DNA of 64,000 nucleotides, taken from sequence record PZ256263.1. The stretch is one strand, 5' to 3'. Position 1 is the stretch's first letter. Each line of letters starts with the position of its first letter. The DNA comes from a phage. The notes beneath the pieces are model-generated. The model saw only the letters and a list, made by a program, of their open reading frames with translations. It ran no database searches and had not been told where the DNA came from. The translations under genes were made by a program, and so were the position numbers. Of this stretch, positions 1 through 25,466 are shown one piece after another.

Positions 1-180
1 AAGTTCGGAATCTCTAGAGCTGTAATCCGAGTTAAGTGGTCTAAAGAAGAAGATCAGTTCCTTATCCGTAATGCTGGGTTCATGTCTATTCAGAGAATGG
101 CTGACATGCTCGGTAGAAGTTATGCTGCTGTACAGAACAGGGCATGTATGCACCTTAACATTAGCCTCAAACTTAAATAG
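1..180 (+). CDS. 5'-truncated ORF at window edge; C-terminal Myb/SANT-like helix-turn-helix domain
   Basis: Frame 1 is open from base 1 to TAG at 178-180; translation ...WSKEEDQFLIRNAGFMSIQRMADMLGRSYAAVQNRA matches the W-x-EED...LGRS...Q-x-R spacing of Myb/SANT DNA-binding repeats. Confidence 0.4.
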   Translation, partial: KFGISRAVIRVKWSKEEDQFLIRNAGFMSIQRMADMLGRSYAAVQNRACMHLNISLKLK

Positions 181-188
181 GAATCAAT

Positions 189-443
189 ATGAAAGTTAAT
201 GAGTTAAACAAAACTACCAAGACTGTGAAACTGCACACTCTGAAAAAGGGTGATACATTCCGTTTAGAGGAGAATGGTCCAATCCATATGGTTTGTACTG
301 CGGCATCTACTAACTGGGTAGAAGTTGCACGAGATCGAGTAGTGTGTGTCAGGCTGGAAGATGGTAGTCTGAGCGGTCCAGTTGAAGGTATCTCTGTTAT
401 TCCTGTTAAGGTTGAAGCTAACGTTATTAAGGACTCTAAATGA
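189..443 (+). CDS. small early protein, possible member of tandem paralog family A
   Basis: Track ORF 84 aa; weak shared pattern (GDTF...HMV...VRLEDGSLS) with the 440, 688 and 1624 ORFs; stop/start overlap with next gene. Confidence 0.5.
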   Translation: MKVNELNKTTKTVKLHTLKKGDTFRLEENGPIHMVCTAASTNWVEVARDRVVCVRLEDGSLSGPVEGISVIPVKVEANVIKDSK

Positions 444-685
444 AGATCATCCCAAAGAAAAAGGATAATACGGTACGGTTGGAAACGATCATTCCCGGAA
501 ACCCCTTCGTGGTTCAGCACGGAAGTGCCTCTCCTCAATATTATATGAGGGTTGAAAATGCTTCTGGTAATATCCGTATAGCCAGTGGCTGGGTTCCTGT
601 GGTAAACCTTTCCACAGGTGTACTATCTGTTAAAGGTCTTGATGATCAGGTAGAAATGATTCGTATGTCAGTGGTTCAGGAGTAG
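440..685 (+). CDS. small early protein, tandem paralog family A
   Basis: Track ORF 81 aa; shares YYMR...G...VNLSTGVLS motif with ORF 1624-1866 and ORF 688-936. Confidence 0.55.
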   Translation: MKIIPKKKDNTVRLETIIPGNPFVVQHGSASPQYYMRVENASGNIRIASGWVPVVNLSTGVLSVKGLDDQVEMIRMSVVQE

Positions 686-687
686 GT

Positions 688-936
688 ATGAGCATCATTA
701 ATATTAAGGTTAAGGGCAAGGAGGAAATAGTCCTCCGTGTTAGAGATCTAAATATGTCAGATGTGTTCACTCTCCAAGAGTGTCAGAATCAAAAGATTTA
801 TATGCTTACAGCTAAAAGCAGGGGCTGTCAACCTGCTGGAGCTGTTAACCTAGGCACTGGAGAACTACGTGTCATCTCTGGTGATATGGTTGTTGGTGAG
901 AAGTTTATTAAGGCTGAAATCATCTTAACTTCATAG
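688..936 (+). CDS. small early protein, tandem paralog family A
   Basis: Track ORF 82 aa; IYM...GAVNLGTGELRV motif shared with 440 and 1624 ORFs. Confidence 0.5.
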   Translation: MSIINIKVKGKEEIVLRVRDLNMSDVFTLQECQNQKIYMLTAKSRGCQPAGAVNLGTGELRVISGDMVVGEKFIKAEIILTS

Positions 937-944
937 GTGATCTA

Positions 945-1157
945 ATGACACAAGAAGAGAAAGATATACTCATCCAGAATGCGTATCTACTGTTTTCCTC
1001 TGAGGATGTTCTGTTCGATCAGCTTTCTAAATTGTGGAAAGTGTCCGAAGAAGAGACTAAAGAGAAGTTTTATTCTGGCATAACAGAAGATTACAAATCT
1101 TTTCTTGGTGAGGTGCTGAGAGATCGGCATGTGTATCTAAGTAATTACGCCTGTTAA
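945..1157 (+). CDS. hypothetical protein
   Basis: Track ORF 70 aa, co-directional and closely spaced with neighbours. Confidence 0.45.
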   Translation: MTQEEKDILIQNAYLLFSSEDVLFDQLSKLWKVSEEETKEKFYSGITEDYKSFLGEVLRDRHVYLSNYAC

Positions 1158-1390
1158 TAGGAAAACAAGTGATCACATTTAATGATTCTACAGAAGAAAT
1201 GACCAACATGAAAGGCTTCGGTCAACGACAGCCTGACGGTTCAATTATCTGGTTCGTAAATGGACAGAAAAAGGTAGCTAAATAAGCCCTCTTCTCTCCT
1301 CCTTTTAGTACTATGACGCCTCTCTGTGGGCGGCCCAATTTGCGTAGGGAATTCCCTCTACGCAGTCATGATTTTTAAGGAATTTCCCCT

Positions 1391-1624
1391 ATGTCTAAAG
1401 TAAGTGCAATTGATGCAATCCGTCAACCGTTCCAGTTCCAATCCAAATCAACCCAAACCTTCAGCGAGCCTAAGCAAATTCGCTTGGGTGGCACAGAGAA
1501 GACTGTGTTTGATCTGGCTAAAAACAAGAGCGTTACCGTAGTTGATGGTGGCACTCTGGTTAACGTTTCCCATCGTATCCGCACTGGCAAAACTGCCAAA
1601 GATCGTGCTAAGAAAGGTGAGTAA
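1391..1624 (+). CDS. hypothetical protein (possible distant member of paralog family A)
   Basis: Track ORF 77 aa; TGA/ATG overlap with next gene; SD-like AAGGAA upstream. Confidence 0.5.
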   Translation: MSKVSAIDAIRQPFQFQSKSTQTFSEPKQIRLGGTEKTVFDLAKNKSVTVVDGGTLVNVSHRIRTGKTAKDRAKKGE

Positions 1625-1866
1625 TGAAAATAGGGAAACCAGCTAAGGATGTTCTAGCGAAGATTGGTGATATCTCTATTGGGGAAGTTTTCTCAGCTGA
1701 GCACTTTTCAAGTTACTACATGAGAATCCCTGACACTAAAGTTGAGGGTTGCATCATCCCTGCCAACGCAGTTAACCTGAACACAGGACACCTGTCTGCA
1801 TTCAAACCTGATTCACAGGTTACTGAAATCAAAGATGCCTACCTCGCCTTTGGTGGGGATAAGTAG
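1624..1866 (+). CDS. small early protein, tandem paralog family A
   Basis: Track ORF 80 aa; SYYMRIPDTKVEGCIIPANAVNLNTGHLS closely parallels ORF 440-685. Confidence 0.55.
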   Translation: MKIGKPAKDVLAKIGDISIGEVFSAEHFSSYYMRIPDTKVEGCIIPANAVNLNTGHLSAFKPDSQVTEIKDAYLAFGGDK

Positions 1867-2097
1867 AGTAACATCTATAGCCTTCTTCTGAGGGCTATGT
1901 GAGTTATTCTGACTCAACTAACCTAATCTTAATATATTTCCCGTATGGGGCCGATGCTAGGGCGAGGAATGTTCCTCAAACATCCGTCGGATAGATATTT
2001 TAAGAGCAGGTTATCCACAGATATTGGGTAATATCTTTTTGGATTTAAAGCTTGGCTCTTTTCGGAGAGTCCTTTTTTAAATTCAATGAGAGGAAAT

Positions 2098-2626: not shown

Positions 2627-3820
2627 ATGTTTCCAGTAACATTAGAAGATACTGAAGGTAATGTTTTAACGGTCAACCCTCCTTGTTATGGGTTCCTTCA
2701 GCTTCGCAACTATAACGGTGGCGTTGATGAAGATGATGACGAAGATGAATACTTCGACCCTAACATGTATGAGGCAACTCATGGGTGGAATATGCACGTT
2801 CGAGTGTGGCATGAAGAAGCTAACGTTCGTAGTGCTGATGGGGAAGAGTTCCTGTTGAGCCGAGAGATGGATATGTGTAAAATCAAGCATATCTGGAACT
2901 CCGGAACTCACATGAAGATGTTAGGTTTTAGACGTTGGCGTGATGAAAAACCTGTATCCGCAGCTTTAGGTTGGGGTGCTATTGATTACGAAGGCGAGCT
3001 TAAAAACAACATTGAACGTTGGAATGACAAAAACCCTGAACATCGAACCACACCTCGTGCTGTACTGGAAGCTATGGAAGCATTTGTGGACAAAGATCGT
3101 CCCTCCTGTTTACGCTGGCACGATAAAGGTTTTATGGGGGTAGCAACTGAAAATGTTCCTGCTGATCGTTGTCTATTCTATTTGATGTTAGATCGAACCT
3201 TCTATTGTGAAGATGAAGAGAGTCAAGTTGAAACCTTCCTCCACAAATGGTTGGTTGAAGGCTGGACAATCCTTCAGTCTTATGTTTACTCACGAATGGT
3301 TAGCACTTACACTAACCTCTTGGGTGAAACGAAAGCAACTCTGGTTGGTAATGATTGGGATGCTTGTATCTTCCCAGCGTCACTATTTACAGTCGGCATG
3401 GCTGATAAATACGCTGAAGCATTTCAAGTGCCTTGGCGTCAACAGTCGTATAGAGACGGGTGTGGTCACTTCCGTGATGAAGACTTTAAGTGGATTCATT
3501 ATGAGAACGATGAAACAGCAGAATTGCGAGTTAACAACTCAATGTTCTTGCCAGTGATGCACCCCGATCTAGTAAAAGATGGGTCAGAGATACTTAAAGG
3601 TGATAATCTTTTGGTTAACTTTACCCGTCGCGTGTCTAAAAATGAGAGAACAGCTAACAGGCTAATCTACGGCATTCGTGCCGAGGCTAAAGACCTGTTC
3701 AACATCTACAACATTATTCAGCGATTTAGTAGTGGAACTCTGGACCAAAGTTCGGAGTATTCAGTGATTCCATCCTCTGAGTGGGATGGTATTATGAGCG
3801 GATTATTTTTAGGAAAATAA
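2627..3820 (+). CDS. hypothetical protein, first gene of amidoligase/GATase cluster
   Basis: Track ORF 397 aa; tightly packed with downstream genes; no recognisable motif. Confidence 0.6.
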   Translation: MFPVTLEDTEGNVLTVNPPCYGFLQLRNYNGGVDEDDDEDEYFDPNMYEATHGWNMHVRVWHEEANVRSADGEEFLLSREMDMCKIKHIWNSGTHMKMLGFRRWRDEKPVSAALGWGAIDYEGELKNNIERWNDKNPEHRTTPRAVLEAMEAFVDKDRPSCLRWHDKGFMGVATENVPADRCLFYLMLDRTFYCEDEESQVETFLHKWLVEGWTILQSYVYSRMVSTYTNLLGETKATLVGNDWDACIFPASLFTVGMADKYAEAFQVPWRQQSYRDGCGHFRDEDFKWIHYENDETAELRVNNSMFLPVMHPDLVKDGSEILKGDNLLVNFTRRVSKNERTANRLIYGIRAEAKDLFNIYNIIQRFSSGTLDQSSEYSVIPSSEWDGIMSGLFLGK

Positions 3821-3830
3821 AAGGTTAGTT

Positions 3831-4802
3831 ATGTCAATCTCCACAACGATCGTACCTCAGAATCTTCAACAAGATTTAGGGGAACAGAAGTTCTTAGGTC
3901 GTGGGTGCTTCGGTATTCACAACTACATGCAAGGCCAGTGTGTAAATGACATTAATGGTGAAGTTATCACGGAAGAAGGGCGCTATCGTCGCTTCAACCG
4001 CGATATCAACTTGCAACTGGAGATGTTGAATTACTGGACTCACTCTTTTCATGGTCATGTTGCATCCGATATTGAAAAGAACTTGATTGAAACAGCGGAC
4101 ATTATGAACTCTATGTCTTGCTATCGTGATGTATTTACAATCACTTCAGCGAACAGTGTTGCTGTCAATCTTCGTGAGCATCCAGCAGATCAGATCTTCA
4201 CAGGACTTATGCTCTTCCGTAGCATTCTGGAAGGGCAGTATCGTGGAATGGATTTCCTAGCAGAAGGAATTGAAGACAGGGAAGAGTGGCTGAAGCGTAA
4301 ACGCATCGGAATCGCTCTAGTGTTAGCTGGGTTAGGTCGTGACTTCTTCGGTGGGTGGTCTCAACGAGGAATAGCCAATGGGAATAGCGAGAGCACCTCT
4401 ATTGTTATTAATAACAATATGTCAGCAGCAGCATTCCTTCCTTTGGTTGTAGACTCTGATGAATACACGAAACAAGTATGGGTTCAAAATCCCTTCGGTG
4501 TTGGTGACAATGAGAATGGTTATGTTCGTAACCATAACCCAGAGGCCTTACGAAGATTTGCTCGTGCTAAAGATCAAGACCCAACTGAGTATGCAACAAT
4601 GTCAGAGTGGTTAAGACTCTGGTCCATCTGTTATGGTCACAAACGTGAAGCAATAGACGACAAGTTGGGAAACATTACAGTACAAAACTTTACAGCCCGA
4701 CTGATTCAAAGAACTGGAGCAGATTCCGGTCTTACTCTTGAAGAAGTTGGTAACACAATCTCATCTCTCTTTTCTGAACTAGTGGAGTATTACAATGACT
4801 AA
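3831..4802 (+). CDS. hypothetical protein (cluster member)
   Basis: Track ORF 323 aa; overlaps next gene start by 8 nt. Confidence 0.6.
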   Translation: MSISTTIVPQNLQQDLGEQKFLGRGCFGIHNYMQGQCVNDINGEVITEEGRYRRFNRDINLQLEMLNYWTHSFHGHVASDIEKNLIETADIMNSMSCYRDVFTITSANSVAVNLREHPADQIFTGLMLFRSILEGQYRGMDFLAEGIEDREEWLKRKRIGIALVLAGLGRDFFGGWSQRGIANGNSESTSIVINNNMSAAAFLPLVVDSDEYTKQVWVQNPFGVGDNENGYVRNHNPEALRRFARAKDQDPTEYATMSEWLRLWSICYGHKREAIDDKLGNITVQNFTARLIQRTGADSGLTLEEVGNTISSLFSELVEYYND

Positions 4803-5601
4803 GCGCAAATTCCTCATCGGCTCTGACCCTGAAATGTTCGTTCGTACTAACAACGGTATCATCACCTCTGTGGCTGGTCTGTTAGGCTGTTCTAAGGACG
4901 ATAAGATCACTCTGGCTAAGGATGTTCGTCTTCAAGAGGACAACGTACTGGCTGAGTTTGATATTGACCCACAGAGCGGCTTTGAAGCGTTTAACGATAA
5001 CATGCAACGTGGTATCGATCTCACCAACAATGTCCTGAACAAACTGGACATGGAAACAGCTCCGGGTGTTAGCTCTCACATCTTCACTGAAGAAGAGATG
5101 AAGACTTTCAATGAATCAGCGTTCATCTTCGGATGTACTCCTGATTTCAACGCTTTCACTGGTCAGAAGAATCCATCCCCGACTTCTCAGAACAAGGGGC
5201 TTCGTACTGCCGGTGGTCACGTACATCTTGGCGTAGTTGGTGCTTTGGATATCACCCTGCAAACTCAGATGATGCTGGGTGTGCTGTGTGACTATTTCCT
5301 GTCCCTCCCAGCAGTTATTATGGATAAAGATACTCGCCGTAAAGAACTCTACGGTAAAGCGTCTGCAATCCGTTATAAAGACTATGGTATTGAATATCGT
5401 TCACTGTCTAACTTCTGGATTAGTGATCGTGAAAACCGTAAGTTTGTTTATGATCAGGTTGACAAAGTTGTTCAGCAGTGTGATATGTCCACTCTGATGG
5501 CATTGCACTCTCGCCTTCCGATTGAGAAGCTTCATGAAATCATTAACGGCAACAACGTTAAAGAAGCGGACCAGCAGATCAAACTCCTTCAGGTAGCATA
5601 A
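4795..5601 (+). CDS. amidoligase-like (carboxylate-amine ligase) enzyme, paralog 1
   Basis: Track ORF 268 aa; motif series GSDPE ... LAEFDIDP ... GGHVHLG ... YGIEYRS parallels the series in ORF 6225-7328. Confidence 0.55.
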   Translation: MTKRKFLIGSDPEMFVRTNNGIITSVAGLLGCSKDDKITLAKDVRLQEDNVLAEFDIDPQSGFEAFNDNMQRGIDLTNNVLNKLDMETAPGVSSHIFTEEEMKTFNESAFIFGCTPDFNAFTGQKNPSPTSQNKGLRTAGGHVHLGVVGALDITLQTQMMLGVLCDYFLSLPAVIMDKDTRRKELYGKASAIRYKDYGIEYRSLSNFWISDRENRKFVYDQVDKVVQQCDMSTLMALHSRLPIEKLHEIINGNNVKEADQQIKLLQVA

Positions 5602-5610
5602 GAGGTTATC

Positions 5611-6228
5611 GTGAGCTTAGTAGCTGATTTTTCTCATTACTATAATGGTACATGGATTGCTAAACGAGCAGGTAATATCAACCTTCCGTGTTTTGTGATT
5701 GGTGTTGAGCAGAGCGGTAACTTCCGCAGTGATGACTTCTCTCACGAAGCAGAACAGGCTCTGTACTTTGTTGTAGAGCAGTGGTACAAGAACGAGCAAG
5801 GGAATCTTCGAAACACTACGATGAACATTCCAGTGTTCGACCCAACCTTGATTCTTGAATCACCTGATGTTGGTTATCTGTTCCATAACGGTAACACTGT
5901 AAGCTGGACTCATATTAACCCTGTTCGTCAGAGAGCAAAGGGTTTAATGGGTAATAAGATTCGAAATGCTCCGGGTGTTGGTCGTGCTATCTCCGGGGAG
6001 ATGGTTTACAGTCTGTTCAATCCTGAATTCGAAGGATTGGTTACTCGTTATATTTACATCAACCCTACTGATGGTAAGGTGCATTATAAAGGTGCACTGG
6101 TAGGACAAGTAGATCTGGAAGCGCCTCGTGACTCTTACGGTCAGCAACCGATGCGACTTCTGGAACACTTTCATCACATTTCTGAAAACCTTAGCAATTA
6201 TAATATTACGTTGGTGGATTCGTTATGA
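5611..6228 (+). CDS. hypothetical protein (cluster member)
   Basis: Track ORF 205 aa starting at GTG with AAGAGG upstream; overlaps next gene by 4 nt. Confidence 0.55.
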   Translation: MSLVADFSHYYNGTWIAKRAGNINLPCFVIGVEQSGNFRSDDFSHEAEQALYFVVEQWYKNEQGNLRNTTMNIPVFDPTLILESPDVGYLFHNGNTVSWTHINPVRQRAKGLMGNKIRNAPGVGRAISGEMVYSLFNPEFEGLVTRYIYINPTDGKVHYKGALVGQVDLEAPRDSYGQQPMRLLEHFHHISENLSNYNITLVDSL

Positions 6229-7328
6229 CAACTGTAGCGCAAACTTTTGGATATCGAGAAGGTCGTTTAACTGAGGAGCATAGTTCAATTGCACTTCAGT
6301 GCGGTGTCGGTATTGAACTTGAACTCGAAGGTTCCGATCATATCGAAGCAGATATGTGGGATTGTACAGAGGATGGTTCCCTGCGTAATGGTTGTGAAAT
6401 GGTATGTTCACGACCTTACAACGGACAGGAGTTGTTAGACGCTATCAACAACCTGAGTGAAGCAGTAGCTGAATCGCACGCCGAGGGGACTTGGCGTTGC
6501 TCTACTCACGTTCATATGGATATGAGGGATGCTGATAGTAATATCCTCAAGAAAACCATTCTCGCTTGGACCTTCTATGAAAAGATGTTGTTCAAGTGTT
6601 CAGGCTATCATCGTTACCGTAGCAACTTCTGCCCTGCTTTCGCAGTGGTACAGGCACAGGTAATGAATGCCTCTGACGCATTTAACTACGACGACGAAGA
6701 GTTCTTCAACCGTCTGGTTCGTTCATGGGATAAGTACACATCCCTAAATCTTCTGCCACTTGCCCAATACGGTTCGATTGAGTTCCGTATCAGTGAGCCT
6801 AAGTGGAAACGTGGTCAACTTCTCAATCTGGTTAACCGCTTCTTGATGTTGAAGAAGCTGGCTTTAGATAACGCAGAGATGAGCAATGATCAGTTTATCG
6901 AGCATTTAAATACTGTACGATTTGCCCCAATGCTTCCTTATCTTCCTCTGGATTACAATCTGGATGAATCGGATTTGCATTCAGGGTATTGTATGGCCCG
7001 TGATGTTTTGTATTGTCGTTCTCATGGAGTAGAGCAATCTGGTCGTATTCGTTTACGTCGAACCAACTCTAACGGAGAAGTTCTTGTTGATTTACGTCTT
7101 ATCTCAGACTTCTACGGATTCCTTGGATATGTTCGAGGGAACGCTAACAACTTGTACCAAGAGATTCTGGTTATGCTTCGTACAACTGATCTATCTACTG
7201 TACGATCTGCACCGGAGCAACGTATCCGTGCTATTTTTGACTTGCTACGTGAGTCAGGCCACAGTGATAACAACATCACAGGGTACATTCCAGATCATCT
7301 GGAAAATCAGTTAGAGCAAGCGCTGTAA
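6225..7328 (+). CDS. amidoligase-like (carboxylate-amine ligase) enzyme, paralog 2
   Basis: Track ORF 367 aa; GIELELEG ... EDGSLRNGCEMVCSRP ... STHVHMD ... YGSIEFRISE, consistent with phage amidoligase family signature as I recall it. Confidence 0.6.
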   Translation: MTTVAQTFGYREGRLTEEHSSIALQCGVGIELELEGSDHIEADMWDCTEDGSLRNGCEMVCSRPYNGQELLDAINNLSEAVAESHAEGTWRCSTHVHMDMRDADSNILKKTILAWTFYEKMLFKCSGYHRYRSNFCPAFAVVQAQVMNASDAFNYDDEEFFNRLVRSWDKYTSLNLLPLAQYGSIEFRISEPKWKRGQLLNLVNRFLMLKKLALDNAEMSNDQFIEHLNTVRFAPMLPYLPLDYNLDESDLHSGYCMARDVLYCRSHGVEQSGRIRLRRTNSNGEVLVDLRLISDFYGFLGYVRGNANNLYQEILVMLRTTDLSTVRSAPEQRIRAIFDLLRESGHSDNNITGYIPDHLENQLEQAL

Positions 7329-7407
7329 TCAATGGGTGCCTCTGGTAAAGGGGCACAATTTAAAGGTTAATTAGATGAAAGGGTTTACCCTTCAGGTGGA
7401 TTAGAAA

Positions 7408-9438
7408 ATTTGTGGCATCGTATTAGCTGGCGGTAATCTGTCAAGCACTGATTTAGACGTATTCAACCAACTCTTTTATGCTGGAGTATTCCGAGGACAG
7501 CACTCCTCTGGTATCTTTGGTCAGCGTAAGAGCACTAAGGAAGTCTTCACTTATAAAGAGGCACTTCCTTCTTTCGCATTCATCCTTCAAGATGAGTACA
7601 AGAAACACACCACTGGTGAAACAGCTTACACTGTAGCACCTTCATGGATTGTTGGTCACAGCCGTCATGCAACGAAAGGTGCAGTTAACGCCAAGAACGC
7701 CCATCCTTTCCAACATGGTAACATCACTCTGGTTCATAACGGAACCTTGATGGACCAAGATCTGTTACCTGACAGCAAAAACTTCGAGGTAGACAGTGAG
7801 AACATCTGCCACTCTATTAACACTATTGGTGCAGCAGAGACTATTCAAAAGCTGGATGGTGCTTTCACCTTAATCTGGCATGATGCTTCTGATAACCGTC
7901 TTCATATCATCCGTAACGAAGAGCGTCCATTCCACCTCGCACGTTGTAACAGGGATTGGTTTGGTGCTTCTGAAGAAGACATGTTGATGTGGATTCTAAA
8001 GCGTTCTAAGTCTCACAAAAACCGAATTGATGAGCACTTTGAATGTAAAGTTGGTACAGAATATATCTTTGATATGTCAAACAACAGCATGACTCTAGTT
8101 GAAGAGGTCGCCCACGAGCTTCCGGTTTTTACGGTAATCAATCGTTGGGGCAATTACTACTCGAACAACTACAGCCAAAGCAGCTATCAAAGTTCCTCAA
8201 AAAGCAGTACAAGCAATCCTTACGACACGAAGCCGGGAGTGACAGCGGCAGACGTTCGTCGAAGAAACGCAGTGGTAAGTCAAAACAAAATCGCAAGCGA
8301 TCGAAACATTGACATTCGCCGCGACATGACTGTGGAAATCACACCACATGAGTTTGTTCCTTATGCAACTGCTGGTGCTGTTCCTTCTCGTGGTAAGATG
8401 ATCGGTTATATCTACGATGAGAAGTCTCAAGAGTATATCGAAGGTGATGTTCATAACGTAGACATTAAGGCTTATCAGGATGCCCTGAAAGACCCTAAAA
8501 TCGTTTACCGTGGGACAGTATCCTGCATCTCCGAAGTTAATGCTATGGTTCGTTTAGTGATCACAGCAGGTCGTTTTGTTGACCCATCTCTGGAGAAAAA
8601 GGAGCCTGAGTCTACTACTGCTGACTTCGATGATGATATCCCTTTTGACATGAATGATAGTTTCGTCAATAAGAATGGCGTTACTATCACTCGTAAATTC
8701 TGGGAAGCACACTCTCACGGGGATTGTGGTGGTTGTGACAAACATATTGATTGGAAGGATGCACCTAAAGCAGTCTTCGCATATCAATGCTACTGGCACC
8801 CTGAATGTCTGGAAGGTTTGACTAAACCTAAAGATGAAGAAGAGGAGGAAACTCCTATTGGTGTTTGTGAAATCTGCGGTGAAGTTAAAACAGAGAATGA
8901 GTTCGATGAAGAGCTTAGTCGTCTTCGTGGTGAAGATATCTGTAAAGTCTGCGCTGTAGATGTAAAGAAGAAAGTGTCTAATGCTACGATCAAAGATGGT
9001 TATGTCTGGATTAAAGCAACAGATACAACAAACGCCCGTCGTCCTGAATTTGCTTTACGTGTAACTGAAGATATGATTGGTCGTATGACTGTATTACCTT
9101 CCTCAGCGAAACAGACAGGCATCACTCTGGAGGATGTTGTTGATGCTTATGTTGAGAAACGTAGCAACAGTATTTTTGCAATCTCAACTAAGCCAAAAAA
9201 GGAGGAACCTGCTGAGAAAGCAGGTGTGTTTCCTGAATCACGAACAGCTCTCCGCAAAACTGTTGTCAGCTTCGACGGAAACCGAAGCACTGACTTCACC
9301 AAAGCCATGTGGTCAACCCTCGGATACTGCTCAGAGTGTTTTAAGCAGATTCCGTGGCGCGATGCTGAAAGTTGTACGCTTGGTTCTATGAATCAAGTTT
9401 ATTGTAATTCTCCTAAATGTTCATTGAATAGAGGTTAA
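7408..9438 (+). CDS. class II (Ntn-type) glutamine amidotransferase domain protein with Cys-rich C-terminal region; predicted ATT start
   Basis: Frame is open from the TAG at 7402-7404; translation begins (I)CGIVLAGG...FRGQHSSGIF and continues ...GHSRHATKG...NAHPF...LVHNG, the class II GATase pattern; no in-frame ATG/GTG/TTG before 7747; AGGTGGA at 7394-7400 sits 7 nt before ATT. Confidence 0.65.
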   Translation: MCGIVLAGGNLSSTDLDVFNQLFYAGVFRGQHSSGIFGQRKSTKEVFTYKEALPSFAFILQDEYKKHTTGETAYTVAPSWIVGHSRHATKGAVNAKNAHPFQHGNITLVHNGTLMDQDLLPDSKNFEVDSENICHSINTIGAAETIQKLDGAFTLIWHDASDNRLHIIRNEERPFHLARCNRDWFGASEEDMLMWILKRSKSHKNRIDEHFECKVGTEYIFDMSNNSMTLVEEVAHELPVFTVINRWGNYYSNNYSQSSYQSSSKSSTSNPYDTKPGVTAADVRRRNAVVSQNKIASDRNIDIRRDMTVEITPHEFVPYATAGAVPSRGKMIGYIYDEKSQEYIEGDVHNVDIKAYQDALKDPKIVYRGTVSCISEVNAMVRLVITAGRFVDPSLEKKEPESTTADFDDDIPFDMNDSFVNKNGVTITRKFWEAHSHGDCGGCDKHIDWKDAPKAVFAYQCYWHPECLEGLTKPKDEEEEETPIGVCEICGEVKTENEFDEELSRLRGEDICKVCAVDVKKKVSNATIKDGYVWIKATDTTNARRPEFALRVTEDMIGRMTVLPSSAKQTGITLEDVVDAYVEKRSNSIFAISTKPKKEEPAEKAGVFPESRTALRKTVVSFDGNRSTDFTKAMWSTLGYCSECFKQIPWRDAESCTLGSMNQVYCNSPKCSLNRG

Positions 9439-9440
9439 GT

Positions 9441-9674
9441 ATGGAAATTCGTAAGATGATGCTGGATAACGTTGTAACCACTCGACGTATCCCGATGACG
9501 AGCACAGGATGTGATAACCTTCGTGCAATCCAGAAGTGGATGCAAGCTGGTATTGGTCAAGTACTTGAGACACAGGTTGAGGTTCCTTTCCCAACGGTGA
9601 TCAATAACGTACTTGCTGATTATGTAAAAATCAAAGGCATTAAGGTAGAACCTCATGTCAAATCTGGTTCCTAA
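9441..9674 (+). CDS. hypothetical protein
   Basis: Track ORF 77 aa immediately after GATase stop. Confidence 0.5.
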   Translation: MEIRKMMLDNVVTTRRIPMTSTGCDNLRAIQKWMQAGIGQVLETQVEVPFPTVINNVLADYVKIKGIKVEPHVKSGS

Positions 9675-19226: not shown

Positions 19227-19883
19227 ATGAATGAACAACTACAAGCAACATTAATTGAAGCTATGGGAAGTGATCGTAGCGTAGTAAACGCAGCTCGAGT
19301 TTCCTTTGGCGTAACCCGTGAAGGTGATTTAAATGAACGTGATGAACGTCTCATCAACTTTCTCGCAAGAGAGAAGCATGTTACCCCATTCCGACACCCG
19401 CAAGTCAGTTTCCGATGCAAAGCACCTATTGCAATTGCGAGACAGTTGGGCAAGCATCAGGTTGGATTCTCGTGGAACGAAATGTCCCGGCGGTATAAAG
19501 ATGGAGCAGTTGAAGTCTTCATCCCTAAAGAGATTTTTGCGAGACCTTCGGACCTCCATGCAGGTTCAGGGGTTCAACTCATCGACGGAGAGCGAGCTGA
19601 AGCATTAATGCTGATTAACGATTCATATGAAGCTTCTCTAGCAGCATATGACAAGTTGATTGAATTTATTGCACCAGAGCAAGCTCGATTTGTTCTTCCT
19701 CAGGGGATGATCACTGAGTGGGTGTGGACCGGTTCTTTGTATGGCTGGTTTGAGTTGTGTCGTCAGCGACTCTCCTCTCACGCTCAATATGAAGTTCGAG
19801 TGTTTGCTAAATCTCTAGATGAAGAGATGGCTAAGCTCTACCCAATCTCGTGGGCAGCTCTGAAGAAAACTTTGGAGAGTTAA
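19227..19883 (+). CDS. thyX: flavin-dependent thymidylate synthase
   Basis: Track ORF 218 aa; NAARVSFG ... QLGKHQVGFSWNEMSRRY matches the ThyX signature, with KHQ where RHR is usual. Confidence 0.75.
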   Translation: MNEQLQATLIEAMGSDRSVVNAARVSFGVTREGDLNERDERLINFLAREKHVTPFRHPQVSFRCKAPIAIARQLGKHQVGFSWNEMSRRYKDGAVEVFIPKEIFARPSDLHAGSGVQLIDGERAEALMLINDSYEASLAAYDKLIEFIAPEQARFVLPQGMITEWVWTGSLYGWFELCRQRLSSHAQYEVRVFAKSLDEEMAKLYPISWAALKKTLES

Positions 19884-19899
19884 TATCAGAGGCTTTCTG

Positions 19900-20133
19900 A
19901 TGAAAATCAAACATATTACAGATATTCAGGAGGCATTTAGAATGCTTCCTCGAAGAGAGAAGGATAAGATTAAAAAGCTTATTCAAGTTTATGGTCATAC
20001 ATCTAAAGATGATGTAGACTATATGCCTTCTACTTTCGTAGAGTGTGGGATTGCTCGCGGTTTCACATTCGACCATAAAGTGTTTCAGCAATTCGTTGAC
20101 CACTGGAGAAAAGATGGAAAAGAAAGTCTGTAG
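19900..20133 (+). CDS. hypothetical protein
   Basis: Track ORF 77 aa. Confidence 0.45.
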   Translation: MKIKHITDIQEAFRMLPRREKDKIKKLIQVYGHTSKDDVDYMPSTFVECGIARGFTFDHKVFQQFVDHWRKDGKESL

Positions 20134-20299
20134 CTTCTGTAAGAAAGAGAAGCCTATCATCAATTTTAAGCCCAATCCTGTGACTGGTTTGTCTCATGTT
20201 ATGTGCCACTCCTGTAGGACATACCTTGAAATAAAACACACTATCAATAGGTTGCATTATTATCACCCAACAACATTCAAATTTAAGGTTGTGAAATGA
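20114..20299 (+). CDS. small Cys-rich zinc-ribbon-like protein
   Basis: Internal ATG (residue 24 of track ORF 20045) preceded by GGAGAA; MEKKVCSFCKKEK...MCHSCRTYLE has two CxxC pairs. Confidence 0.4.
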   Translation: MEKKVCSFCKKEKPIINFKPNPVTGLSHVMCHSCRTYLEIKHTINRLHYYHPTTFKFKVVK

Positions 20300-20499
20300 A
20301 AACTTTGTGGACTCTTGACTGCCAAGACGATGACGGAGAGCGTTGGACTTGGAAATATTTCCTAGGGAAACCGACACCTGATAACCCTGCTTTGGATTGT
20401 GCTTCATATGAAGACGCCAAGAAATTGGTAAACGGAGAGAAAGTTTGGTCTCCGGATAATGAAGTTATGTACTTTTTAACAGAACGGAAATTTTCATAA
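20296..20499 (+). CDS. hypothetical protein
   Basis: Track ORF 67 aa; overlapping stop/start on both sides. Confidence 0.45.
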   Translation: MKTLWTLDCQDDDGERWTWKYFLGKPTPDNPALDCASYEDAKKLVNGEKVWSPDNEVMYFLTERKFS

Positions 20500-20828
20500 T
20501 GATCGATGGTAATACATTTAGGACTTCAAATGGAAGTGAAATAAGTCCCGCTGAAGTAATCAATCGGCATAGAAGGCAATTGATCATCCATTCCTATTTG
20601 TATTACTGGTTGGATGACCCTATCTGGTCTGATGATAAATGGCAACAAGTTGCTAATGATTTGGTTGAGTTGCAAGCCTTATATCAAGAGCCTACCGGAG
20701 TCTTTGACAATGAGTTCAAAGATTGGGATGGTTCTACAGGAATGCATCTCCCACACAACGAGGCTGTTGCTTGTATGGCGACAGCTGTTTACAGGATTCA
20801 TAAAGATATGAACCATGAAGTGCTCTAA
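20499..20828 (+). CDS. stand-alone protein resembling domain Ia of NAD-dependent DNA ligase
   Basis: Track ORF 109 aa; RRQLIIHSYLYYWLDDPIWSDDKWQQVANDLVELQ resembles the LigA N-terminal Ia helix pair. Confidence 0.45.
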   Translation: MIDGNTFRTSNGSEISPAEVINRHRRQLIIHSYLYYWLDDPIWSDDKWQQVANDLVELQALYQEPTGVFDNEFKDWDGSTGMHLPHNEAVACMATAVYRIHKDMNHEVL

Positions 20829-23621: not shown

Positions 23622-25466
23622 GTGAGCAACCCGGACGCTCTCCCATTTTTGACAGAGATGACTGTCGCTGATATAATCTCTAAGCAAGCAAAGCACGGAG
23701 TGAGTTTCAACCGAAGAAATGCTCGGTGGTATGTTCACCTCCTTAAAGAGATTATTGTTAATATTGACAAAGAACTGATTCCTCTCTTACCTAAGATGAG
23801 ATTAGATGGCTCAACTTATATGAAGCCGTTTAAGAAGTCTGGAGCTTTACAGAAGTGGCCTCAAGCCTATTGCGATAGAGTTGGCCTCAAGAGAGAAGAC
23901 ATTGGTGGAGCATTCACCTGTGTCGAGTACGTAGACTTTGACCCATCGAAAGATGCACGAGTTAAAGAAGCCCTTATGGATGAGGGTTTTCTTCCTCCAG
24001 AGTTTAACGTATCTAAAAAGCCTTGGAACACTTTCGAAATTAAGAAAGACATGCGAAAGTATGGAACATACCAAGCATGGTACACCGCTTGGATGCGAGG
24101 CAATGCTAAACAGAAACAGACAGCCGAGATGGTTGACGCTGATATTAAGAAGTTCTTAGAGAAACACTTTAGGTTCAAGACTAAGAACTACATGAAGGCT
24201 TATGTGTTTGGTTTGGGATTAAACCCTAACCGACGTAACCCTGTAACATTTGACGAGATTAAGAAAGCACTAGCTACCTCAAACAAGTGGCCTACAGCTC
24301 CTACAAACCTCGAGGAGACTCTTGAAGAAGGGTTAGGGGGTGAGCTAGGGAGTGTCGGAAGTTTGCTTAAGAGACGTGTTGTAGCGGCTCACAGGCTAGG
24401 TCTTATTAGTGGACTTATAGCAAAGGAGCGCGAAGATGGTAAACTTTCGGCAGAAGCTAACAGCTGCGCTACGCCGACTTTTCGATTCAAACATCGTATC
24501 GTGGTTAATATTCCCTCCCGTGGTTTGTTTGGTCATGAGTGTCGCAGTTTGTTTGAGTCTGACTATAACTCAGATGATGATCACTCTCGTCCTTTCGTTA
24601 TTACTAACGTTGTTCCTGATGGTTGTTATATACGAAAAGGTACTAACGTAATTTATGAAAAAGGTAAGCCGGGGAAGAAAGATAAGCCTGTAGGTGCTTA
24701 CAAATATTACATACCCGCTGGTAAAGAAGTATTCTTAGGGTATGATGGTTCTGGATTAGAGTTGCGTATGCTTGCACACTACCTCATTAAAGAGTGTAGA
24801 GATATGCTTGCTGAAGCAATAGAAGAAAACAATCCAGCTAAGAAAGCTCTGGCAGAACGTGGTTTAGCTTCTGCTATTATGTATCGTGATATTCTCCTTG
24901 AAGGTGATATCCACTCTCACAACCAGAAACTTGCTGGTCTTCCTACTCGTGACAACGCTAAGACATTTATCTACGCATTCAACTATGGTGCTGGTGATGC
25001 TAAGCTCGGTTCAATTGTAGGTGGTGGGGCTGACGAAGGTTCAGTGATGCGAGCACGTTTCTTGGCAGAGAACCCGTGTATTGCAATCCTCATTGATCGT
25101 ATGACAGAGAAAGCTGCTCAAGGATACTTGATTGGTGTTGATGGTCGTAAGATTACAATGAGACGGGATGCCACTGGTAAGGTTATGGTTCATAAAGCAC
25201 TTAACACCCTCCTGCAATGTGCTGGTGCTGTTGTTATGAAATATGCTATGATGTTCCTTAACAAGTGGATTGAGAGAGATGGGGTTCGTTGTGCTAAGGT
25301 AATTGATATGCACGATGAGGGCCAGTTCTCAGTGAACCGTAATGATGTACAGAAACTCAAAGAACACACCGAGCTTTGTGTTAAGAAGGCTGGTGAGTAT
25401 TTGAACATGGAATGTCCTCTGGCATCTGATTGTCAGATTGGACTTAACTGGATGCATACACACTAA
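23622..25466 (+). CDS. DNA polymerase, family A polymerase domain (T7 gp5-like), lacking the 3'-5' exonuclease motifs
   Basis: Track ORF 614 aa (GTG start, AGGAG upstream); motif A GYDGSGLELRMLAHY, motif B RDNAKTFIYAFNYGAGDAKLG, motif C HDEGQF, C-terminal GLNWMHTH. Confidence 0.9.
   Translation: MSNPDALPFLTEMTVADIISKQAKHGVSFNRRNARWYVHLLKEIIVNIDKELIPLLPKMRLDGSTYMKPFKKSGALQKWPQAYCDRVGLKREDIGGAFTCVEYVDFDPSKDARVKEALMDEGFLPPEFNVSKKPWNTFEIKKDMRKYGTYQAWYTAWMRGNAKQKQTAEMVDADIKKFLEKHFRFKTKNYMKAYVFGLGLNPNRRNPVTFDEIKKALATSNKWPTAPTNLEETLEEGLGGELGSVGSLLKRRVVAAHRLGLISGLIAKEREDGKLSAEANSCATPTFRFKHRIVVNIPSRGLFGHECRSLFESDYNSDDDHSRPFVITNVVPDGCYIRKGTNVIYEKGKPGKKDKPVGAYKYYIPAGKEVFLGYDGSGLELRMLAHYLIKECRDMLAEAIEENNPAKKALAERGLASAIMYRDILLEGDIHSHNQKLAGLPTRDNAKTFIYAFNYGAGDAKLGSIVGGGADEGSVMRARFLAENPCIAILIDRMTEKAAQGYLIGVDGRKITMRRDATGKVMVHKALNTLLQCAGAVVMKYAMMFLNKWIERDGVRCAKVIDMHDEGQFSVNRNDVQKLKEHTELCVKKAGEYLNMECPLASDCQIGLNWMHTH

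Follow-up and report, generated by a model that had tools for sequence, protein, structure and literature searches.

Four small genes near the start of a 64,000-nucleotide stretch of phage DNA (sequence record PZ256263.1; the whole stretch is called the window here) belong to one old protein family, which recurs across the early region of the same phage, in its relatives and in more distant phages. The genes are called here A (positions 189–443, + strand, 84 amino acids (aa)), B (440–685, +, 81 aa), C (688–936, +, 82 aa) and E (1624–1866, +, 80 aa). The family is predicted to share a small barrel-like fold with two variable loops, and its members may bind host components early in infection. 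A reading made from the DNA letters alone, referred to below as the sequence-only reading, had placed the four genes and a fifth open reading frame (ORF), D (1391–1624, +, 77 aa), in a tandem array of small early paralogs, with B, C and E sharing a conserved core and A and D as possible divergent members. All five ORFs are present in the window and agree with 'hypothetical protein' annotations in the closest record, Escherichia phage ev_rybdy3 (PQ819470; 98.8% identity, with window position 1 at position 24722 of the record). The paralogy holds for B, C and E and also for A, but not for D, according to shuffled alignments, leave-out profiles and PHROG matches. The window phage itself is a Kuravirus, a podophage of E. 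coli similar to phiEco32 and SU10.

Family membership of the window genes

The Smith-Waterman (SW) score of each ORF pair was compared with those of 500 shuffles. None of the shuffles scored as high as B–E (SW score 71, z=11.7), C–E (82, z=14.3) or A–B (47, z=5.0). The direct comparison of B and C gave z=1.5 only, these two genes being connected via E, and the A–E pair gave z=0.5. D reached at most z=1.2 against each of A, B, C and E. A leave-group-out test was also carried out with profiles from about 150–240 family members, from which every BLAST-detectable relative of the target had been removed, and with 1000 shuffles. In this test A scored 56.4, B 57.7, C 40.1 and E 48.8 bits, and the shuffles stayed at or below 10.2 bits. 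Over the different profiles the scores were 55–56 bits for A, 58–61 for B, 40–45 for C and 49–61 for E (E-values 1e-14 to 1e-21), and the 1000 shuffles per target never went beyond 14 bits. The leave-out score of D was -0.7 bits, a value that 500 of the 1000 shuffles reached or passed and thus in the middle of their distribution. In the pairwise and profile alignments that the sequence-only reading had proposed as a check, A, B, C and E are therefore well above the shuffled controls, whereas D is no better than they are.

When the PHROG profiles were scanned, A, B, C and E matched each other's families (7832, 7431, 12612, 6570, 8365 and others). A matched phrog_7832 with cross-matches to 8365, 7431 and 6570, B matched phrog_7431, C phrog_12612 and E phrog_12612, 6570 and 7431, and the E-values of the window proteins with their own PHROGs were 1e-26 to 1e-41. 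D matched phrog_6662 only. The motifs of the family follow one another in the order G-[DE]-x-F, Y-[YF]-M, V-N-L-x-T-G-x-L and then a conserved V. Every one of them is found in this order in B and E, C has S for the first G, and the motifs of A are relaxed, with IHM in place of YYM and VRLEDG in place of VNLxTG. The core noticed earlier from the letters was confirmed as QYYMRV...VVNLSTGVLS in B, KIYMLT...AVNLGTGELR in C and SYYMRI...AVNLNTGHLS in E. D lacks the GxxF and YYM motifs, and it was rejected as a divergent member on the basis of its pairwise scores, its mid-shuffle profile score and its single PHROG match. Taken together, these comparisons indicate that A, B, C and E are true ancient paralogs.

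The description as a tandem array applies to A, B and C, which abut or overlap: the stop codon of A overlaps the start of B (ATGA), and C begins 2 nt past the stop of B. It does not apply to E, which lies 690 bp further on, beyond three non-family genes, and whose start overlaps the stop of D (TAATG).

The excluded ORF D encodes a basic protein (isoelectric point 10.3, net charge +7.6) that is 89–100% identical across three genera. Its stop codon overlaps the start of whichever gene fills the variable slot occupied by E in the window. D is a separate, highly conserved protein, coupled in its translation to the variable E slot.

Distribution of the family

The entire early region of the window phage was scanned with the family profile, and 10 clear copies and 1 marginal copy were found in three clusters. 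The first cluster (PQ819470 positions 19634–20815) holds 4 clear members and the marginal one, the second (PQ819470 23198–23650) holds 2 members, and the last is formed by A, B, C and E of the window. The first two clusters lie 1.1–5.1 kb upstream of window position 1, and every upstream member was recovered in the leave-out test. In the remainder of the 64-kb window, no extra member was detected by the family profile at E<=1. About 8% of the annotated genes of this phage (10–11 of 131) are hence members of a single family. The comparison of copy number across related phages, also proposed in the sequence-only reading, gave 4–11 family copies per genome: 9 clear and 1 marginal in Bas90, 8 and 1 in KBNP1711, 7 and 2 in phiEco32, 6 in ECBP2 and 4 in Salmonella phage 7-11, with 6–10 copies in relatives belonging to Kuravirus, Nieuwekanaalvirus and Suseptimavirus.

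With a profile of the four paralogs, 94 proteins of about 80 aa were recovered; those that carry a name are from Escherichia phages, and the largest contigs are about 77 kb in length. In an exhaustive search of 1.84 billion representatives with a hidden Markov model (HMM), 250 clusters (at 50% identity) passed E<=1e-3; nearly all were 69–92 aa long and matched from end to end, and a few were two-domain fusions of 154–161 aa. Among the members is gp21 of phage N4, which is a clear match (E=3e-17). Four adjacent family genes with five domains, including the two-domain fusion P0099 (154 aa), were found at 448–1820 of a Logan contig (SRR30347326). The DnaB helicase of this contig is closest to Enterocloster (43% identity) and SPbeta-like phages, and the contig also carries YorF and YorH domains, an integrase and DNA methylases, so that it belongs to a Firmicutes phage or prophage. 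As this four-gene array shows, the family genes tend to line up in tandem in an unrelated lineage too. A further 3–4 members are located at 10001–14794 of ENA ERZ28645033 scaffold_103 (98 kb, distantly GAP52/7-11-like), interleaved with ProQ-like, PRPP-synthetase-like, NAPRTase (NAD salvage), TerC and TerD genes, and this accessory neighbourhood may include counter-defence functions.

Between 24 and 104 of 122 members cross-match seven PHROG profiles and 11 of the 122 match an eighth (phrog_34455). This cross-matching indicates that the eight PHROGs concerned (7431, 7832, 12612, 6570, 8365, 9955, 16423 and 34455, all of 'unknown function') form one superfamily. No consistent Pfam family was found among the 122 members, and the family had no match in NCBIfam, PADLOC or PDB sequences and no solved structure. 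Searches of the phage collection by tblastn gave no match with the profile consensus, possibly through the low-complexity filter, and none with the metagenomic member P0240. Little was gained by a word-indexed homolog search with the 122-sequence alignment. Some long bacterial proteins, such as P0095 (3353 aa, 20 partial stretches), P0098, P0100, P0102 and others, match the profile in 5–20 short pieces that cover, for example, profile positions 10–41 only. Such proteins probably match through beta-rich repeats or composition and not through homology.

Predicted fold and conserved positions

The structure was modelled with AlphaFold2 for E only, with 122 homologs in the alignment. The model is all-beta with five to six strands and no helix of 4 or more residues (predicted local distance difference test (pLDDT) 86.3, predicted template modelling score 0.73), and a shallower alignment gave the same topology with a pLDDT of 74. 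The best PDB fold matches found by Foldseek for both models were SH3-like barrels, namely the eIF5A N-domain, EF-P domain I and ribosomal L2, and the first model also matched PWWP and Tudor. The Foldseek probability of these matches is 0.95–1.0, but their scores are weak (E 0.01–0.2, template modelling score 0.45–0.52), and the SH3-like matches have a sequence identity of 9–17% and a root-mean-square deviation of 4–8 Å. The predicted fold of the family is a small SH3-like beta-barrel. Predicted viral structures (BFVD) gave 19 matches at E<=1e-3, from Kuravirus relatives, 7-11 and phages of Erwinia, Vibrio and Morganella, and all the named ones are uncharacterised. Weaker matches, to E of about 0.01, came from N4 and from phages of Dickeya, Serratia, Klebsiella, Proteus, Yersinia and Pseudomonas.

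Strong conservation in a profile of 148 non-redundant members is limited to M1-K2-I3, L14, L17, G20-D-V-F23, Y32-M33, V50-N-L52-x-T-G55 and V66, mostly hydrophobic or glycine, and the C-terminal strand is hydrophobic and more weakly conserved. Among these 148 members, conservation does not extend to any His, Cys or Ser, and acidic residues are nowhere invariant. Two segments, columns 24–30 (beta2–beta3) and 36–47 (beta3–beta4), are hypervariable and nearly unconstrained in both sequence and length. The net charge of the eleven copies ranges from -2.5 to +3.9, and none of them has a hydrophobic or transmembrane segment or a signal peptide. The pattern as a whole is what a scaffold with variable loops would show, and it speaks against an enzyme, a membrane protein or a protein that mimics DNA.

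Variation among related phages

The relatives compared here are 98 phage records that match the first 5 kb of the window, nearly all of them from Escherichia or Shigella and including SU10 and phiEco32 (Gordonclarkvirinae, Kuravirus). The ratio of nonsynonymous to synonymous substitution rates (dN/dS) between close orthologs was 0.02 for A (against SU10 and Bas90), 0.03–0.09 for B (within allele class), 0.11–0.15 for C and 0.06 for E, and 0.09–0.29 for the flanking genes. The low values of the four genes (0.02–0.15) show that they encode functional proteins under purifying selection.

The presence of the individual genes varies widely among these approximately 98 records. A-type genes were found in 25–28 records. 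B occurs in 76, as two allele classes (49 records at >=90% identity and 27 at 60–80%), and C in 71, with 36 at >=80% identity, 4 at 60–80% and 31 below 60% (about 50%). An ortholog of E is present in only 18 records, and the E slot elsewhere contains a 36%-identical family member or a non-family membrane protein, or is empty. The composition of the array changes from phage to phage: the window has A, B1, C1 and E1; SU10 has A, B2 and C1 with the membrane protein at the E slot; KBNP1711 is missing A and has B2, C2 and E1; phiEco32, Bas90 and 172-1 have an additional member, A', between A and B; and ECBP2 and a metagenomic relative have the 36%-identical member at the E slot. The alleles of a slot are 36–72% identical, while the neighbouring D stays at 89–100%. 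The differences between the B alleles are mainly in the two loops and beta5, and the N- and C-terminal strands are invariant.

Paralogs residing in the same genome are 20–35% identical and their positions have been kept in three genera. No DNA-level repeat was detected within positions 1–2300 beyond chance matches of 21–22 nt, and the only duplication of recent appearance is an upstream pair (PQ819470 23198–23419 and 23429–23650) with 59% identity. A recent tandem duplication of the window genes was rejected because of the missing DNA repeat and the low identity. It had been suggested that these genes diversify by duplication, which was not borne out as a recent process. Instead, the same two observations indicate that the duplications are old and took place before the split of the three genera. 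The present variation is, as far as the gene comparisons tell, one of gain, loss and whole-gene allele exchange at fixed slots and not of ongoing duplication, and the individual copies appear dispensable.

Gene A has a synonymous divergence (dS) of 0.51–0.70 against SU10 and Bas90, compared with 0.06–0.35 for its neighbours in the same pairs, and its protein is 98% identical. This hints at an allele that is older, or was exchanged on its own, and that is very tightly constrained.

Genomic context and neighbouring genes

The orthologs of the window genes are gp096–098 in SU10 and gp95 and gp96 in phiEco32, where the members gp97 and gp98 are in the same array. In SU10, coding sequences 69–125 have been classed as early on the basis of their homology with phiEco32, sigma-70 early promoters are located at 76.7 and 73.5–74.0 kb, and no terminator is listed between these promoters and gp096–098 at about 64 kb (PMC4281155). 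The placement of the genes in the early module by the sequence-only reading agrees with this, the orthologs being inside the SU10 early block, whose class was assigned by homology. Their placement at the left end of the module does not, as the SU10 early promoters are 9–12 kb upstream and 6–7 further members are found upstream in the window phage itself. The impression of a left end arose because the window starts arbitrarily inside the early block. By homology with phiEco32, the family genes appear to sit in the early block, 9–12 kb into it and in the middle of an operon. The early genes of phiEco32-like phages are mostly without assigned function and are 'likely' to serve host takeover (PMC8948821).

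No convincing promoter was found by consensus scans in positions 1–2700. Terminator-like hairpins with T-runs are located at 1340–1365 and 2054–2071 (+), inside 1286–1390 and 1867–2085, the only intergenic gaps of any length here, and could attenuate or punctuate a long early transcript.

Window positions 1–180 (+) are the 3' end of a 103-aa gene, which is labelled 'endonuclease' or 'transcriptional regulator, D5-like' and has a faint Sigma70_r4_2 match in a relative. This gene is directly 5' of the A–B–C array in all Kuravirus and Nieuwekanaalvirus relatives examined in which it is annotated. After C, an ORF at 945–1157 (+, 70 aa) has no PHROG match and only a sub-threshold HMG_box match (E 0.008). 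It is found in ev_rybdy3 and is missing from the same position in SU10, phiEco32 and Bas90, and it looks like an inserted accessory gene. The following ORF at 1169–1285 (+, GTG start, 38 aa) is conserved in SU10, phiEco32 and Bas90. Compared with PQ819470, the interval from the end of C (936) to the start of D (1391) contains a 2-bp indel. Downstream of the array, window positions from about 2627 to 11000 (+) contain a conserved early block with genes annotated in relatives as COOH-NH2 ligase, amidoligase, glutamine amidotransferase, RimK-like ATP-grasp ligase and gamma-glutamyl cyclotransferase.

Possible function of the family

Our favoured reading, in which we have about even confidence, is that the family members are early proteins without enzymatic activity, which attach to host components in the service of takeover or counter-defence and whose specificity lies in the variable loops. 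We favour it because of the fold, the conservation pattern, the early location, the dispensable copies and the exchange of alleles. The conserved hydrophobic core and the glycine turns (G-D-V-F, Y-Y-M, V-N-L-x-T-G-x-L and V) would hold the two hypervariable loops, which in turn would give each paralog or allele its own partner. The proteins would be made early in infection and would bind host proteins, and the binding could either serve takeover or block a defence. The copies, each of them apparently dispensable, are swapped among relatives as alleles of the whole gene. A role in host takeover or anti-defence, as proposed in the sequence-only reading, is compatible with the genomic context and the pattern of variation.

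Several observations weigh against the host-binding reading. Searches of Pfam, NCBIfam, PADLOC and PDB sequences gave no homology that would connect a member with a function, and no match to characterised anti-defence families (Ocr, ArdA, Tad1/2, Gad1, Acb1/2 and Acr) was found through Pfam, NCBIfam or PDB sequences, a dedicated anti-defence HMM library not being among those searched. The resemblance in fold is weak (Foldseek E 0.01–0.03, template modelling score about 0.48), and what it points to are domains of translation factors and not known phage inhibitors. Selection within the allele classes is purifying and not diversifying. Most relatives have B and several upstream members, as would be equally fitting for a core function of the phage. 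In N4, the first 30 kb were examined and contain one copy, which we take to be outside the earliest genes of N4. In addition, the evidence for an anti-defence neighbourhood comes from one contig. The fact that gp096–098 were not among the six early products detected by mass spectrometry of an SU10 virion preparation is uninformative either way.

The main rival, which we consider possible but clearly less probable, is that the family members regulate the phage's own programme by binding nucleic acids, RNA polymerase or the ribosome, similarly to barrels of the KOW, Tudor or EF-P domain I type, instead of opposing host defence. The top structural matches (eIF5A N-domain, EF-P domain I, L2, PWWP and Tudor) do bind ribosomes, RNA, DNA or peptides. 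On the other hand, the copies are close to neutral in net charge (-2.5 to +3.9) and share no basic patch, the Lys/Arg loop that is modified in EF-P/eIF5A shows no conservation in the family and no KOW or EFP Pfam model was matched. A small helix-turn-helix-type regulator gene precedes the array, and phiEco32-like phages are known to use small proteins, gp79 among them, to reprogramme RNA polymerase (PMC12276001). However, at least 10 divergent copies and their frequent loss would be odd for regulators of a conserved programme.

It is improbable that the family serves the phage internally in some other way, be it in superinfection exclusion, as an assembly chaperone or as an accessory of replication. 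In favour of such a role, some members are near-universal among the relatives, but no member has a signal peptide or a membrane segment, the genes are in the early region far from the morphogenesis genes, and individual copies seem dispensable. We give still less credence to a minor rival, in which the family members are substrates or carriers of the downstream peptide-bond-forming enzymes and thus part of a phage protein-tagging system. The predicted fold resembles domain I of EF-P/eIF5A, which is post-translationally modified in cells, and the family and the ligase cluster share the early region in Kuravirus relatives and in 7-11. Against this, there are no such ligases near the members in N4 (in the first 30 kb) or in the Firmicutes contig, the family shows no conserved Lys, Glu or C-terminal residue that could serve as acceptor, and the C-termini differ among paralogs. 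Chance or compositional similarity with no gene family behind it is hardly credible: the B–C and A–E scores are not significant alone, but B–E, C–E and A–B exceed all 500 shuffles, the leave-out scores of 40–61 bits compare with at most 14 for shuffles and hundreds of full-length homologs have the same motif pattern, which excludes it for A, B, C and E and lets it stand for D only.

A bolder form of the host-binding reading, offered here tentatively, is that the family is a natural binder scaffold. One SH3-like barrel would be reused 4–11 times per genome with its two loops retargeted, each paralog or allele neutralising a different host immunity or housekeeping protein, and likewise in N4-like phages, large myoviruses and SPbeta-like phages of Firmicutes. 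If true, such an arsenal of binders would account for the broad resistance that Gordonclarkvirinae show to restriction and to further defence systems.

Phages of the Kuravirus group are candidates for therapy, and they resist restriction-modification systems (PMC11990801). A compact family of swappable early proteins provides testable candidates for that resistance or for host takeover. In case the retargeting of the loops is true, the family would be a natural scaffold for finding new host or defence targets, and in case it is false, the merger of the PHROGs and the corrected membership (D out, A in) are still useful. It is also of interest that one uncharacterised family recurs across unrelated virulent phages, including the classic model phage N4.

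Relation to known systems

Paralogous small early genes are familiar in virulent phages, and sequences of this family have already been catalogued as anonymous PHROGs. The merging of at least eight PHROGs into one SH3-like family, the expansion to about 8% of the Kuravirus gene set, the reach to N4 and to phages of Gram-positive hosts and the slot-wise exchange of alleles appear undescribed in the literature searched, which had no mention of the family, no paper naming the eight PHROG ids and nothing relevant on anti-defence in Kuravirus. PHROGs keeps the eight profiles as separate families without function, whereas here they form one superfamily.

N4 gp21 (YP_950499, 74 aa, uncharacterised) is like the window family in its full-length profile match (57 bits) with the motifs GxxF, YYMK and VNLxTGxL, and it is also a BFVD structural match to the E model. 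It is unlike the window family in being a single copy within the part of N4 examined, between lipoprotein and endonuclease genes, presumably in the middle region of N4. No published function for it was found in the literature searched.

The SH3-like barrels of translation (eIF5A N-domain, EF-P domain I and L2; also PWWP, Tudor and FeoA) resemble the family in being small and all-beta with 5–6 strands. The 122 members had no EFP_N, eIF-5a or KOW Pfam match at E<=0.01 and no PDB sequence match. The acceptor for hypusine, beta-lysine or rhamnose at the beta3–beta4 tip is not conserved, and columns 36–47 of the family are its most variable part. The likeness to EF-P/eIF5A, as far as the models go, is at the level of fold class only.

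Arrays of small early genes for host takeover or anti-defence are found in several virulent phages, as in the early ORFs of T4, the class I genes of T7 and the module of SPO1, and they consist mostly of unrelated ORFans. The window family is similar to these arrays in that its genes are small, located in the early region and tightly packed with overlapping stops and starts, and in that they vary by presence and absence. In contrast to them, it reuses one fold 4–11 times per genome and does so in phages of both Gram-negative and Gram-positive hosts.

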